From Escherichia coli 042 (GTDB lineage: Bacteria > Pseudomonadota > Gammaproteobacteria > Enterobacterales > Enterobacteriaceae): 64,000 bases of DNA. Shown piece by piece: positions 14,203 to 23,016 of the stretch. The notes beneath the pieces are model-generated. The model had not been told where the DNA came from and did no database searches. It saw only the letters and a program-made list of their open reading frames with translations. The DNA is taken from the NCBI RefSeq assembly GCF_000027125.1, contig NC_017626.1; one strand, written 5' to 3'. Made by a program: the position numbers and the translations under genes. The number at the start of each line of letters is the position of its first letter. Position 1 is the stretch's first letter.

Positions 14203-15156
14203 ATGCGTTTCAGTACCCAGATGATGTACCAGCAAAACATGCGCGGCATCACCAACTCTCAGGCAGAATGGATGAAGTACGGCGAACAGATGTCGACGGG
14301 TAAGCGAGTCGTTAACCCTTCAGATGATCCCATTGCTGCATCACAAGCTGTTGTTCTCTCCCAGGCACAGGCGCAAAACAGCCAGTACACGCTGGCGCGT
14401 ACTTTCGCCACTCAAAAAGTGTCACTGGAAGAGAGTGTACTTAGCCAGGTCACCACCGCTATCCAGAATGCTCAGGAAAAAATTGTCTACGCCAGCAATG
14501 GCACCTTGAGTGACGATGACCGGGCCTCGCTGGCTACGGATATTCAGGGGCTTCGTGACCAGTTGCTGAATCTGGCGAACACCACTGACGGTAACGGGCG
14601 CTACATTTTTGCCGGTTATAAAACAGAATCCGCACCGTTTAGCGAGGCGGATGGCAAATACGAAGGCGGAGCAGAAAGTATTAAACAACAGGTCGATGCT
14701 TCGCGTTCGATGGTGATAGGGCACACGGGTGACAAAATTTTCGACAGTATTACCAGCAACGCGGTAGCGGAACCAGACGGTAGCGCTTCTGAAACCAATC
14801 TTTTTGCCATGCTGGATAGCGCCATCGCAGCCCTGAAAACGCCGGTCGCGGATAGCGAAGCGGATAAAGAAACCGCCGCTGCGGCGTTAGATAAAACCAA
14901 CCGCGGACTGAAAAACTCGCTGAACAATGTCCTGACCGTTCGCGCGGAATTAGGCACGCAGCTGAACGAACTGGAGTCGCTGGATTCATTAGGTAGCGAT
15001 CGCGCATTAGGGCAAACGCAGCAGATGAGCGATCTGGTTGATGTGGACTGGAATGCAACTATTTCATCTTACATCATGCAGCAAACGGCATTGCAGGCAT
15101 CGTATAAAGCATTTACCGATATGCAGGGATTGTCGCTCTTCCAGCTCAACAAATAA
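14203..15156 (+). CDS. flgL: Flagellar hook-associated protein 3 FlgL
   Basis: 317-aa ORF, recognised FlgL; last gene of the cluster. Confidence 0.92.
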   Translation: MRFSTQMMYQQNMRGITNSQAEWMKYGEQMSTGKRVVNPSDDPIAASQAVVLSQAQAQNSQYTLARTFATQKVSLEESVLSQVTTAIQNAQEKIVYASNGTLSDDDRASLATDIQGLRDQLLNLANTTDGNGRYIFAGYKTESAPFSEADGKYEGGAESIKQQVDASRSMVIGHTGDKIFDSITSNAVAEPDGSASETNLFAMLDSAIAALKTPVADSEADKETAAAALDKTNRGLKNSLNNVLTVRAELGTQLNELESLDSLGSDRALGQTQQMSDLVDVDWNATISSYIMQQTALQASYKAFTDMQGLSLFQLNK

Positions 15157-15249
15157 GCTCGCTTTAAAACATATCATGAAACTGGGTATGTTTTCTCTGC
15201 CTGCTCTGGGATCGCCGGGGCGGGCATTTTTTGCATGAGACATAACGAA

Positions 15250-16034
<785 letters not shown>

Positions 16035-16065
16035 AAATATATCCTTCGGCTTTGCATGGATGATA

Positions 16066-16095
16066 ATTATACAGCGCATGTAACGCTAATGTCAT
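16066..16095 (-). promoter_or_regulatory. Putative sigma-70 promoter of the toxin-antitoxin operon
   Basis: Minus strand reads ATGACA-N18-TATAAT, about 30 nt upstream of the antitoxin ATG; overlaps a short imperfect inverted repeat (GTAATGACATTAGCGTTAC) that could be the operator. Confidence 0.45.
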
Positions 16096-16117
16096 TACAA
16101 CAAAGATGCTACCCTGA

Positions 16118-16146
16118 AATAAAAAAGCCCTGGCAGTTACCAGGGC
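16118..16146 (-). terminator. Intrinsic terminator downstream of rne
   Basis: Perfect 7-bp stem GCCCTGG / CCAGGGC with 6-nt loop (16127-16146), followed on the minus strand by TTTTTTATTT; lies just after the rne stop codon. Confidence 0.6.
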
Positions 16147-16166
16147 TTGATTGCTTGAGCTAATTA

Positions 16167-19100
16167 TTACTCAACAGGTTGCGGACGCGCAGGAGCGGCA
16201 GAGGCATGATGCGTTGCCGTATGACCACCTGCGGCACCTTTGCCTTCGAAGGCAAAAGTAGGGCGCTGCCAGTCACTGTGACGCGGTGCCTCCGGAACAT
16301 ATTCCGGTGCCGGAGCGCGCGTCATTGGCGCGGTAGCGTGGTTATGCTCAACGGTGACCTCAGGTTTAACCGCGGCTACCGTTTCAACTTCTGCTGCGAC
16401 TTCAGCGACGACAGGCGCGGCAGGTTGAGCAACAACTTCAGGTTCAGCAACCACAACCTCAGCAGTTTCGGCAACTTCTTCAATATCTGCCGTCTCTTCC
16501 TGCGGTTCAACCACCGGTTCTGCGTGTTCTGCAACTTCCTGGGCTACGGCAACATCAGTCTCGGTAATCACCTGCGGCTGTTCAGTTACCGCGGCGGCAA
16601 TCACTTCAGGATGCGTCGTTTCAACCACTTCCGGTTGCGGTTCGGCAACCTGAACGGGGGCTTCTACAACTTCAGCCACTTCTTCAACAACCGGTGCGCT
16701 AACAACAGGTTCGACAGCGGCGGCGACAGGGACCTCAGTCACCATCGGCTGCACTTGTACTTCTTCCTGTTCGCGCTGCTCTTCGACCTGTACATCTTGC
16801 GGACGTACAATTGGATAGCGGATCCAGACTTTGCCAGAGGCCAGTTCCGGAGATGCGCACGCTACGGTCAACGGCATTGGCGATTGGGTTGGATAACGCT
16901 CGTCACGATAGCGACGACGACGCTGACCACTCACGCGCAGGTGACGAGGCGAGCGGCGAGAACGACGCGGCATGCCACCGTTGTCACGGTTATCGGCATT
17001 GTTCTCTTCTTGCTGTTCTGGTGCAGCTTGCGCTACGACTGGCAGCGGGACTTTCACCAGTTCTGTGCGTGGAGCTGGCGCTTCCTGAACAATTGGTTCG
17101 GCAGCGACAGTTTCTTCAACCACCGGTGCGACTACCGCTTCTTCGGCTACGCTTTGCTCGTAACGCACTTTCTGATTGAGCTGACGCTGTTTACGACGCG
17201 GCTGAACCGGACGTACACGTTCTTCCTGTTCGGTTTCCTGAACAGATTGCTCTTCAACATTCAGCGCCTTCGCTTCTTGTTGCGCCTGACGTTTATCATC
17301 GTTACGGCGGCGGCTACGTTCACGACGCGGCGCTTGCTGCTCGTCGGTGGTACGCGCTTTTTCCGTTACCTCAGCCTGCTGACGGCTCTCACGCGTCTCG
17401 GCAGTCTGCTGCTGTGCCTGGCGACGATTACGACGGTTTTCTTCGCGATTATCGCTGCCTTCTGTACGTTCACTACGGGTATCGCGGCGCTCATTACGGT
17501 CACGGCGGTTGTTCTGACGAGGCTTGCGACGATCCTGTTGACGTTCCGGTTTCGCTTCTGCTTTCGGTGCTGGTTGCTCGGTCGGTTTGGTTTCTTCACC
17601 ACCGCTGAACAGCGCTTTCAGTGCGCCGAAGAAGCGGCTTAACAGCCCAGGTTGTGCAGGAGCTGCTGGTGTTGCCGGTGCAGCTTTAGGTGCTGGGGCT
17701 ACGACAGGCGCGGCAGGTTCAGCTGGGGTTGGTGCTGGCGGCACATCCGGCATGGCAAAGGTAGCCAGCGCAGGTTGTTCCGGACGCTTACGTTCAGCGA
17801 ACTCTTCTTCAGACGGCAGCGCCATCGCTTCTTCATGCAGCTTCGGCAGCATGTAGCTTAAGGTTGGGGTTTCTTCCCCTTTGCGCACGCGCAGCACATG
17901 GTAGTGCGGGGTTTCCATCTGATCGTTTGGCACAATCACACAGCGCACGCCGTCCTGACGAGTTTCAATCGCATTCACTGCAGAACGTTTTTCATTCAGC
18001 AGATAAGAAGCGATTGGCACAGGAACAATGGCGTGAACTTCCTGGGTGTTCTCTTTCAGCGCTTCTTCTTCGATCAGACGCAGAATAGAGAGCGACAGCG
18101 ATTCGTTGTCACGCACGGTACCGGTACCGGAGCAGCGCGGGCAGACGTGATGGCTGGATTCACCCAATGATGGGCTCAGGCGCTGACGGGACATTTCCAG
18201 CAGGCCAAAGCGAGAAATATGGCTGATTTGAATACGCGCACGGTCCTGACGCACCGCTTCACGCAGACGGTTTTCTACCGCACGCTGGTGGCGTACTGGC
18301 GTCATGTCGATGAAGTCGATAACAATCAGGCCGCCGAGGTCACGCAGGCGCAGCTGACGAGCAATCTCATCGGCAGCTTCGAGGTTGGTGTTAAACGCGG
18401 TTTCTTCGATATCGCCGCCGCGGGTCGCGCGTGCGGAGTTGATGTCGATGGCCGTTAACGCTTCGGTGCTGTCGATAACAATGGAACCACCAGACGGCAG
18501 ACGAACTTCACGCTGGAAGGCGGACTCAATCTGTGACTCGATCTGGTAGTGGCTGAACAGCGGGATCTCGCCGGTGTACAGTTTGATTTTGCTGCTGAAA
18601 TCCGGGCGACCTAATGCAGCGATATGCTGACGTGCCAGTTCGAGCACTTTCGGGTTATCGATAAGGATTTCGCCGATGTCCTGACGTAAGTAATCGCGGA
18701 ATGCGCGAACGATGACGTTGCTCTCCTGATGAATCAGGAACGGAGCCGGGCGGCTTTCAGCGGCTTTTTTGATGGCTTCCCAGTGTTTCAGACGGAAGCT
18801 TAAATCCCATTGCAGCGCCTCAGCAGATTTGCCGACGCCAGCGGTGCGCACGATTAGCCCCATGCCTTCCGGCAGTTCAAGGCTTGCCAGTGCTTCTTTT
18901 AATTCGGTACGGTCGTCGCCTTCGATACGACGAGAAATGCCACCCGCGCGCGGGTTGTTCGGCATCAGAACCAGATAGCTACCCGCCAGACTGATAAAGG
19001 TGGTTAATGCCGCGCCTTTGTTGCCGCGCTCTTCTTTATCGATCTGAACAATGACTTCCTGACCTTCACGCAACACATCTTTAATGTTGGGACGACCATG

Positions 19101-19352
19101 TGCACTGTAGTTAGCAGGGAAATATTCGCGGGCAATTTCTTTTAGTGGGAGGAAACCGTGACGTTCAGCGCCGTAATCAACAAAAGCAGCTTCCAGACTC
19201 GGTTCAATGCGGGTGATTTTACCTTTGTAGATGTTTGCCTTTTTCTGCTCGTGCCCTGGACTTTCGATATCCAGGTCATACAGACGCTGCCCATCTACAA
19301 GGGCAACGCGCAACTCTTCCTGCTGAGTTGCGTTGATTAACATTCTTTTCAT
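16167..19352 (-). CDS. rne: Ribonuclease E
   Basis: 1061-aa ORF; N-terminal catalytic domain [30 protein letters not shown] and Arg/Pro/Glu-rich low-complexity C-terminal scaffold region. Confidence 0.95.
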
Positions 19353-19713
19353 CGTAACTTACTCATTATTCTTACATTGACGACTAAGCTGCGGGCAAAG
19401 TAACGCCTTTCCGGGTGTGAACCGATGGCCTCGTGTCTAGTCGCGTCGCCAACCTCACGGTTATCGTTAGCTCAAAGAGGCGCAGAGTGTCGGTTGCCCG
19501 TTTTTCATGCGGAAAAACAGCGCAATTATCAAAGAAACAGACTGGGTATTACTCTCCAGAAATATTTCCATCTACCGGTAAGGACTGCAACCCGCAGCCC
19601 GCTAACTGCCTGAAAGATCAATACGTCTTACGCCATTGCTGCGTGGATGATCGGTCGGGCAAAATGGGTTATTCCGTAAAATTTCTTGTTTTAACAAGGA
19701 TGGACACGGAAAC
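19353..19713 (-). promoter_or_regulatory. rne 5' untranslated leader (autoregulatory) and promoter-proximal region
   Basis: About 360 nt between the rne ATG and the upstream region; E. coli rne is known to have a long structured 5' UTR that mediates RNase E autoregulation (established knowledge; boundaries approximate). Confidence 0.45.
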
Positions 19714-19924
19714 GGCCTCATTATTCCACTGCAAGCCTTGTTATAGCAAGATGACTTTTACCATTTATCACCCGCTTACTCACAGTTTTTTCACTTCTTG
19801 CTGGTGATTGGTTTAATAACCATCAATAAAGTGATCACGTAGTGAAGTAATAAGGTGCAAAACTAAATATAAGCATAGAAAAATGAGTGGCGCGAATCCT
19901 GTTGGCTAATTAGAATCGCCCACC

Positions 19925-20884
19925 ATGAAAACAGAGACTCCATCCGTAAAAATTGTTGCTATCACCGCTGACGAAGCGGGGCAACGTATCGATAACTTTT
20001 TGCGTACCCAATTGAAAGGCGTACCAAAAAGTATGATTTACCGTATTTTGCGTAAAGGCGAAGTGCGGGTGAACAAAAAACGTATTAAGCCTGAATATAA
20101 ACTCGAAGCGGGTGATGAGGTGCGTATCCCACCGGTTCGCGTTGCTGAACGGGAAGAAGAGGCGGTTTCGCCACATCTGCAAAAGGTGGCAGCGCTGGCG
20201 GACGTCATCTTATATGAAGATGACCATATCCTGGTGCTGAATAAACCTTCCGGTACGGCGGTACATGGCGGCAGTGGTTTAAGCTTCGGCGTTATCGAAG
20301 GTTTGCGGGCGTTGCGCCCGGAAGCGCGGTTCCTTGAACTGGTTCATCGTCTCGACCGGGACACTTCAGGTGTGTTGCTGGTAGCGAAAAAACGCTCGGC
20401 GTTGCGTTCTCTGCATGAGCAATTACGTGAAAAAGGGATGCAAAAAGATTACCTGGTGCTGGTGCGCGGTCAGTGGCAGTCGCATGTGAAGAGCGTTCAA
20501 GCGCCGTTGCTGAAAAATATTCTGCAAAGCGGCGAACGTATCGTGCGTGTGAGTCAGGAAGGCAAACCGTCGGAAACACGCTTTAAAGTGGAAGAACGCT
20601 ATGCTTTTGCCACCCTGGTGCGTTGTAGCCCGGTAACAGGGCGTACTCATCAGATCCGTGTTCATACACAGTATGCGGGTCATCCGATTGCCTTTGACGA
20701 TCGCTACGGTGACCGTGAATTTGACAGACAGCTCACTGAAGCCGGCACGGGATTAAATCGTCTGTTCCTGCACGCCGCAGCGTTGAAGTTTACCCATCCG
20801 GGGACCGGTGAGGTGATGCGTATCGAAGCGCCGATGGATGATGGTTTGAAGCGTTGTTTGCAAAAACTGCGTAACGCGCGCTAA
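19925..20884 (+). CDS. rluC: 23S rRNA pseudouridine synthase RluC
   Basis: 319-aa ORF with N-terminal S4 domain and RluA-family catalytic core (HRLDRDTSGVLLVAK); synteny with rne. Confidence 0.9.
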   Translation: MKTETPSVKIVAITADEAGQRIDNFLRTQLKGVPKSMIYRILRKGEVRVNKKRIKPEYKLEAGDEVRIPPVRVAEREEEAVSPHLQKVAALADVILYEDDHILVLNKPSGTAVHGGSGLSFGVIEGLRALRPEARFLELVHRLDRDTSGVLLVAKKRSALRSLHEQLREKGMQKDYLVLVRGQWQSHVKSVQAPLLKNILQSGERIVRVSQEGKPSETRFKVEERYAFATLVRCSPVTGRTHQIRVHTQYAGHPIAFDDRYGDREFDRQLTEAGTGLNRLFLHAAALKFTHPGTGEVMRIEAPMDDGLKRCLQKLRNAR

Positions 20885-20885
20885 T

Positions 20886-20932
20886 ACGAGCATATAAGCA
20901 TGATAATGGGCGGTTGGCCTGATAAGGCGTTT
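20886..20932. repeat. REP / palindromic unit (left half of the BIME interrupted by the IS)
   Basis: GGCCTGATAAGGCGTTT type REP sequence immediately flanking the IS left end. Confidence 0.5.
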
Positions 20933-21840
<908 letters not shown>

Positions 21841-22364
21841 TCCAGGAGATGCTCCTGCATGGCTTTCAGATATGCATTTTCTGCGCGAAGATAACGCAGC
21901 TCATTCTTCATCTCTTCCGGCGTCATGTTTGCCTCGTTTTCATGGGTATCATCAGAACGGGTCATGCTTTTCTCCTTCCTGCGCCTGATAAAGGCCTCAT
22001 TACCAGATTTGCGGTAGCCTTTTATCCAGTTTTTAACCGTGTTGTGGCTGGGAATGTTAAACCGGGCAGCTACCCGGGGTAGAGACTCAGAATGCCCGAG
22101 AGCATAAAGAACCACGCAAAGTTTATCTTCAGGAGAATAGCTACGCTTGTGTCTGCAATCCAGTGCCCGAGGACCGTGAAGAAGAAAAAGATTAATCCAG
22201 TGTGAGAGGCTGGTGTGAGAAAGTTGAAAGAGTTTTGCCGTAGAAATGATGCCTGCATGACCAGCCAGGTAATGATTTACAGCGGCAAGTTTTACTTCAA
22301 ATGAATGTTTCATAAACTGCACCTTCAGATGTCAGATTATGTCCAACATTTGGGGTGCAGTTCA

Positions 22365-22431
22365 GTTTACGCCGCATCAGGCTGCCAGCACCGATTGCCG
22401 GATGCGACGTAAACGCATCCGGCGCAGAAAA
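22365..22431. repeat. REP / palindromic units (right part of the BIME interrupted by the IS)
   Basis: GTTTACGCCGCATCAGGC...GCCGGATGCGACG...CGCATCCGGCGC: canonical REP palindromes. Confidence 0.5.
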
Positions 22432-23016
22432 CTATCCCATCAGCGGGTTTTTCCCTTCCCGACGTAACATCTGACACAGCGCGATTAGCGGTAAACCAAC
22501 CAGCGTGTTAGGATCACGCCCCTCTAAACGCTCAAACAGCGTAATGCCAAATCCTTCACTCTTAAAGCTACCCGCGCAGTGCAGGGGATGCTCTTTACGC
22601 ACGTAATTATCAATCTCCGCCTCGCTCAGGTGACGGAAATGGACGTCAAAAGGCTCCACTTCTGTTTGCAGATGCCCATTCGCCGAATTAAACAACGCCA
22701 GCCCAGTATAGAAGGTGACGATATTGCCGCTGGCTTTGCGTAATTGCAGACGGGCATTTTCTTCCGTTAACGGTTTACCGGTGATTTCGCCATCAAGAAC
22801 ACATACCTGGTCTGAACCAATAATTAAATGATCCGGATAACGTGACGCCAGAGATTGCGCTTTTTCTTGTGCCAGTCGAAGCACCAACTGTCGCGGTGAT
22901 TCGTCGCCGCGTGGGGTTTCGTCGACCTCGGGTGCTGCACATTCAAAAGAGATTTGCAGTTTTTCCAGAAGAGCGCGACGCCAGGGCGAGGTGGAGGCTA
23001 AAATAAGTTTAGGCAT
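22432..23016 (-). CDS. yceF: Maf-like nucleotide pyrophosphatase YceF
   Basis: ATG at 23016 gives 194 aa [21 protein letters not shown]; Maf family. Confidence 0.85.

Follow-up and report, generated by a model that had tools for sequence, protein, structure and literature searches.

The rne–rluC spacer of Escherichia coli 042 as a control region of rne, with the yceQ-type frame most likely a chance ORF

In Escherichia coli 042, the divergent spacer between rne and rluC acts as the regulatory region of rne on the minus strand. Its structured leader would serve RNase E autoregulation, and the yceQ-type open reading frame (ORF) on its plus strand would be a product of chance; we hold this joint reading with very high confidence. 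The locus is an ordinary one, already known from Rfam and several papers. In the stretch of 64,000 nucleotides that was analyzed (hereafter, the window), the ORF list places rne (RNase E, 1061 aa) at 16167..19352 (minus strand) and rluC (23S rRNA pseudouridine synthase, 319 aa) at 19925..20884 (plus strand), and K-12 and the RefSeq genome closest to the window carry the same two annotations. By the same list the spacer runs from 19353 to 19924, and the counted 572 bp agree with the "about 570 bp" of the initial annotation. Alignment with K-12 over 601 positions shows 4 differences, and the spacer is found at 99% or higher identity in 5391 of the 5425 matching complete E. coli genomes; over 15100..22500, the genome closest to the window is that of E. 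coli JNE12-007 (coverage 100%, identity 99.4%). PGAP placed no feature in the spacer in any of 20 genomes sampled, nor in the one closest to the window.

First of all, the minus strand of the spacer carries a complete, known RNA element. The Rfam family RF00040 (rne5, the RNase E 5' UTR element) matched 19377..19713 on this strand with 259.8 bits (E 4.9e-82), the gathering score being 180 bits, and the match spans model positions 1-333 of 333, i.e., it is not truncated; no other Rfam match was found in 18800..20500 at E<=1. The rne5 match stops 24 nt short of the rne ATG (19352) and lies on the rne strand, as RF00040 does upstream of rne in all loci that were checked, and full-length matches upstream of rne were also obtained in Yersinia, Salmonella, Enterobacter, Klebsiella and Citrobacter loci. 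When compared with RF00040 of E. coli K-12, the element is alike in position, strand, the invariant loop of its second hairpin (hp2), full-length match and implied 361-nt length, and nothing of substance differs. The leader departs from that of K-12 at a single base (19468, T in the window instead of C), which is unpaired, and it was indeed found that every leader difference within Escherichia falls at an unpaired RNA position, those of E. albertii near 19532 and 19548 among them.

The Rfam consensus structure was then mapped onto the window, all on the minus strand. It places a 5'-terminal stem-loop at 19672..19711, which we take to be the one named hp1 in the nomenclature of Diwa and colleagues from 2000. 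It is followed by an hp2-type stem-loop at 19606..19662, with the invariant loop GCAGCAAUGGCGUAAGACGU at 19623..19642, and by a multi-branched hp3-type domain at 19386..19600, closed by an 11-bp long-range helix in which 19590..19600 pairs with 19386..19396. An alignment with the K-12 leader and its hairpins had been suggested as a check in the initial annotation; the alignment with K-12 returned the 4 spacer differences, and the mapping of the Rfam structure gave the hp1, hp2 and hp3 domains.

That the structure is real can be judged from a set of 47 Enterobacterales leaders, ranging from Escherichia to Xenorhabdus, on whose alignment the pairs of the Rfam structure were mapped. Standard pairs occupied 88.7% of the cells, as opposed to 32-43% when the 3' partners were slid by 1-3 columns, and double-sided changes were seen in 44 of the 84 leader pairs (227 cells). 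None of 500 shuffles reached any of the observed covariation measures; however, the shuffle control ignores phylogeny, and the structure was taken from Rfam and not from the 47-leader alignment, so that the slid-partner control is the fairer of the two, and this control is decisive for the leader pairing. The helices of hp1 were the weakest (helices 1 and 2, 67-83% paired), with double-sided changes in 3 of 6 and 5 of 5 pairs, respectively. The pairs of helix 4 showed CG/AU/UA swaps in 18-21 of the 47 sequences, and in the hp3 domain helix 7 was 97.5% paired, with compensatory changes in helices 8-15. RNAalifold, run on the 47-leader alignment, independently recovered the long-range closing helix and the inner hairpins. 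The 20-nt hp2 loop motif GCAGCAATGGCGTAAGACGT is exact at 19623..19642 on the minus strand, and at least 120 species genomes contain it unchanged; in this sample, defined by an exact match to the motif (at least 120 matches), rne and rluC flank it in nearly all genomes, at distances almost as in E. coli.

The leader is preceded by a candidate promoter at the appropriate place. A consensus scan of 19300..20000 returned a single sigma-70-like site, the putative rne promoter P1 at 19749..19720 on the minus strand, with TTGCTA as -35, an 18-nt spacer and a TG-extended -10 AATAAT (9 of 12 matches). Since about 1.3 such sites are expected by chance, it is the position of the site and the invariance of its hexamers that argue for P1: the -10 block (CATTATTCC on the plus strand) and the -35 block (GTTATAGCAAG) are invariant in 35 Enterobacteriaceae. 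With +1 expected about 7 nt downstream of the site, transcription would start at ~19713, where the RF00040 match begins, and near-identity to K-12 would likewise place the P1 start there. Goodall et al. 2018 and Price et al. 2016 (10.1101/038851) do locate the rne promoter inside yceQ. The Rfam match, the P1-like site and the length of 361 nt cited for the E. coli rne leader in PMC10989929 together point to a 5' UTR of 361 nt from P1, at 19353..19713 on the minus strand. It had been claimed that the roughly 360 nt upstream of rne are the autoregulatory 5' UTR, and the full-length RF00040 match, the covariation and a promoter-like site giving 361 nt all bear this out.

Autoregulation of RNase E through its 5' UTR in E. 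coli K-12 was reportedly worked out by Jain and Belasco in 1995, by Diwa and colleagues in 2000 and by Schuck and colleagues in 2009. In K-12, RNase E speeds up the decay of the rne mRNA upon recognition of a stem-loop in the 5' UTR of that mRNA (PMC10989929 and PMC11321048), and hp2 is described as the hairpin that senses or binds RNase E (Diwa 2000; Schuck 2009, cited through PMC11321048). The feedback is established for K-12, and the 99% identity and family membership of the present leader suggest that it would operate here in the same way. Transcription from P1 would begin near 19713 and yield a 361-nt structured leader, with hp1, hp2 with its invariant loop, the multi-branched hp3 and the ribosome-binding region in this order. 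Whenever RNase E activity exceeds substrate demand, the enzyme would recognize hp2 (19606..19662) in its own leader, with hp3 adding to the sensing of hp2, and this recognition would lead to faster decay of the rne mRNA, i.e., to homeostatic negative feedback. Small minus-strand ORFs within the leader (30-39 codons) were also considered as leader peptides and were rejected, with 7-12 stops per minus frame and dN/dS of 0.5-1.5.

It is to be noted that the leader carries an insertion in other genera. An insert of 89-129 nt is present at one point of the leader in Citrobacter youngae/braakii, Pseudocitrobacter, Klebsiella oxytoca, Pluralibacter, Kluyvera and others (locus L035, at 709-834; also L038, L070, L034, L060, L081, L063, L054, L039, L088, L104, L031, L094 and L110). 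The site corresponds to ~19570-19574 of the window, just after CCUUACCGGUA and inside the hp3 domain; the window itself lacks the insert. Raoultella and Enterobacter sp. 10-1 carry ~252-258 nt at the same site, apparently as two copies. The insert is a dispersed repeat, since it also occurs elsewhere in several of the loci, and it presumably resembles ERIC/IRU repeats, with 17 of 22 matches to each of what we take to be the ERIC primer sequences. RF00040 is still matched at full length in the insert-bearing loci L081 and L035, and the Raoultella locus L110 gave no RF00040 match at the gathering threshold.

We now turn to the plus strand, where the ORF list holds a yceQ-type ORF of 124 codons from GTG at 19433..19807 (stop at 19805..19807). 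A 124-aa ORF had been reported at the position of K-12 yceQ, and it is indeed there, with frame and stop unchanged. The position therefore stands, with the refinement that the K-12 annotation is a 106-codon version and not the 124-codon maximal ORF: yceQ of MG1655 (b1085, 1144502..1144822) corresponds to 19487..19807 of the window, sharing frame and stop but starting 18 codons further in, at GTG 19487, and the sequence is identical within these annotated 106 codons. The ORF had also been said to overlap the leader. This holds for most of its length, but not for the last ~95 nt, which lie upstream of the leader and over P1 and a DnaA double box. The 3' third of the ORF consists of P1 together with this double box, which has been described in the literature. 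Neither is an ORF of 124 codons remarkable in itself, since 27 ORFs of at least 120 aa are nested in longer ORFs in the window, including one of 487 aa that is antisense to rne.

Most likely, then, the yceQ-type ORF is a chance ORF and not a gene. It would be an accidental stop-free frame across the antisense of the leader and promoter, from which no functional protein would be translated. The opposite reading, that yceQ is a real protein gene, young and Escherichia-restricted, antisense to the leader and translated at a low level or in particular conditions, is in our judgment very improbable, although several features appear to speak for it. The ORF is intact and has identical boundaries in the window, in K-12 and in E. 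albertii; however, at the near-universal 99% identity of the DNA noted above, integrity within Escherichia is uninformative. A Shine-Dalgarno-like AGAGG lies 6 nt before GTG 19487 and is complementary to a conserved CCUCU in hp3. In the K-12 RefSeq record, yceQ is retained and its product is named 'DUF2655 domain-containing protein', a name that NCBI also gives in Salmonella, Citrobacter and Lelliottia. DUF2655 nonetheless survives in record names only, and neither version of the ORF matched any family model in Pfam-A at E<=10 or in NCBIfam at E<=1. The scan that found P1 also returned no promoter-like site on the plus strand upstream of the ORF.

The coding tests go against a protein still more directly. 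In 14 species pairs, the frame of the ORF had dN/dS of 0.57-1.25, which was not below that of five control frames, the +1 frame often being lower, whereas the flanking codons in the same pairs gave 0-0.06 (the first 80 rne codons 0-0.01 against 14 other species, and the first 71 rluC codons 0.007-0.059). At the same time, dS was 0.09-0.23 in the ORF versus 0.43-1.06 in the rne and rluC codons, i.e., the "synonymous" sites of the ORF were 3-8 times more conserved, while its replacement sites were far less conserved than those of the flanking genes. A low dS combined with a dN/dS around 1 means that the constraint is on nucleotides, and not on codons or protein. Codon usage led in the same direction: the log-odds score of the ORF was -0.25, under that of every long ORF of the window (all 48 ORFs of at least 200 aa scored 0.07 or higher), and 74% of the nested spurious ORFs (mean -0.13 +/- 0.17) scored above it; GC at the first codon position was 0.40 in the ORF as compared to 0.60 in real genes. 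Within the genus, 3 of the 5 ORF changes between E. albertii and E. coli are non-synonymous, one E. coli-like sister lineage (L052) has lost the stop codon, and three E. coli YceQ entries (P0001, P0007 and P0009) are frameshifted or truncated.

Outside Escherichia, the boundaries of the frame dissolve. In 121 sequences among the matches listed, the yceQ frame around GCAGCAATGGCGTAAGACGT had 84 different boundary pairs, and the boundaries of the E. coli ORF were common only to E. albertii. Indels of 1-2 nt are common within the ORF region in other genera, inserts of 105-258 nt also occur there, and a few genera retain a long ORF through offsetting +1/-1 indels. The median open stretch in the same 121 sequences was 68 codons in the yceQ frame versus 29 and 20 in the other two plus-strand frames, and the yceQ frame reached 100 codons or more in 28 of them. 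This excess has a simple source: the other two plus frames are closed in nearly every species by stops at -9 and -17 from the motif, inside the invariant core, so that one open plus frame is inherited together with the conserved RNA sequence. The database 'homologues' of YceQ tell the same story, being 68-156 aa long with unrelated N- and C-termini, and sharing nothing but a peptide that results from translating the invariant hp2 loop and the hp3 base in antisense. Thus, yceQ looks conserved because the leader RNA and the promoter are conserved, and the locus neatly illustrates that a structured RNA and a promoter, when conserved, can make an antisense ORF and its 'homologues' resemble a conserved small protein. 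Codon usage and conservation had been named in the initial annotation as tests of its view that the ORF is more likely non-coding; the score of -0.25, the dN/dS near 1, the low dS and the unconserved boundaries, together with the lack of a family model and of a PGAP call, all fall on the side of that view.

Published work had arrived at the same point by other routes. According to Price et al. (10.1101/038851), ribosome profiling in three growth conditions gave no reads for YceQ, which is without homologues and is disrupted in some strains; the ribosome footprints that the initial annotation would have taken as a sign of translation are, therefore, reported absent in these data. Within yceQ, transposons are tolerated only when oriented so that they can drive rne (10.1101/038851; Goodall et al. 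2018), and the 'essentiality' of yceQ in the Keio and PEC lists, where it once figured, was later read as an effect on the rne promoter and leader that a non-gene overlaps (TraDIS; Goodall et al. 2018). The strand effects of CRISPRi at yceQ similarly point to rne (Rousset et al. 2018). The comparative tests presented here lead, on their own evidence, to the conclusion already published, namely that what is essential is the promoter and leader of rne and not a protein. Their main value is one of annotation hygiene, as yceQ, formerly counted as essential, persists in the K-12 reference record.

A different use of the plus strand was also considered, namely that it gives rise to a non-coding antisense RNA, forming with rne a divergent 'excludon' that tunes rne through transcriptional interference or through cleavage of the duplex by RNase III. 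PMC12288877 does list rne-yceQ as one of 16 divergent excludons derived from RNA-seq coverage in E. coli. Such a call, however, follows automatically from the overlap of the rne 5' UTR with the yceQ annotation and is no evidence of a plus-strand transcript. Moreover, 19300..20000 contains no sigma-70-like site on the plus strand, and the structure and promoter on the minus strand fully account for the conservation. We consider this reading extremely improbable. When the two ideas are put in their broadest form, i.e., yceQ as an Escherichia-specific de novo gene that acts under special conditions, or plus-strand transcription that tunes rne, the chance that either holds is judged to be very small. 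The preferred reading of the plus strand thus remains that of a chance ORF lying over the antisense of the rne leader and promoter.

Conservation of the spacer does not end at P1. A candidate double DnaA box, TTTATCACCCGCTTACTCACAG, lies at 19764..19785, 51-72 nt upstream of the P1 start, and is highly conserved across the genera of Enterobacteriaceae. It was assigned by identity, as these 22 nt are the same as the DnaA ChIP-seq site '(yceQ) rne' at K-12 1144772 in PMC11317965, a paper that gives no regulatory outcome for rne. Its conservation hints that control of replication initiation may be linked with RNase E synthesis, and a DnaA input at 19764..19785 is possible. In the alignment of 35 Enterobacteriaceae, conservation drops sharply from ~19797 and returns in two blocks near rluC, ~19865..19893 (AAATATAAGCATAGAAAAATGAGTGGCGC) and ~19908..19921 (ATTAGAATCGCC), the surrounding stretch being variable. 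The conserved DNA upstream of P1, comprising the DnaA box and these further blocks, may serve the transcription of rne, of rluC or of both.

PMC8361080 describes a reporter with rne promoters 'P1 to P4' that comprises 555 bp upstream of rne and hence would reach ~19907, and a search of PMC2532720 gave no positions for the upstream rne promoters. We infer that these promoters and that of rluC may be expected in the stretch 19865..19921; inspection by hand revealed no convincing promoter there on either strand, and the consensus scan gave P1 only. The block at 19908-19921 contains TAGAAT, 8-13 nt before the rluC ATG; were this hexamer to act as the -10, the rluC mRNA would have almost no leader.

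A natural insertion in this part of the spacer was also encountered. In the mastitis isolate E. coli CM IVRI KOL-1 (L122), an IS1 lies between rne and rluC, at a point that would correspond to ~19835-19842, as estimated from the annotated transposase coordinates and not from sequence. It appears to leave rne with P1 and the DnaA boxes but to detach rluC and the distal conserved blocks, and if its position is correct, the DNA beyond ~19840 would be dispensable for rne expression. The same IS1 was considered as a natural disruption of yceQ and was rejected in this role, since it appears to lie downstream of the ORF stop and is thus uninformative on the ORF.

On the 3' side of rne, 15250-16079 on the minus strand encodes a toxin of the GNAT acetyltransferase family (169 aa) and, overlapping it by 19 nt, an antitoxin of the TacA type (112 aa; PF08681, E 1.7e-26). 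The pair fills an insertion of ~800 bp between flgL and the 3' end of rne, where K-12 has a gap of only 195 bp that carries the sRNA FlgO, and it is annotated alike in the closest RefSeq genomes. On the other side, an IS3-family element at ~20950-22400 on the minus strand (transposase orfB at 20965..21687) lies between rluC and yceF, which in K-12 are without an IS element between them; in RefSeq relatives this element is named IS1397 and has a programmed frameshift.
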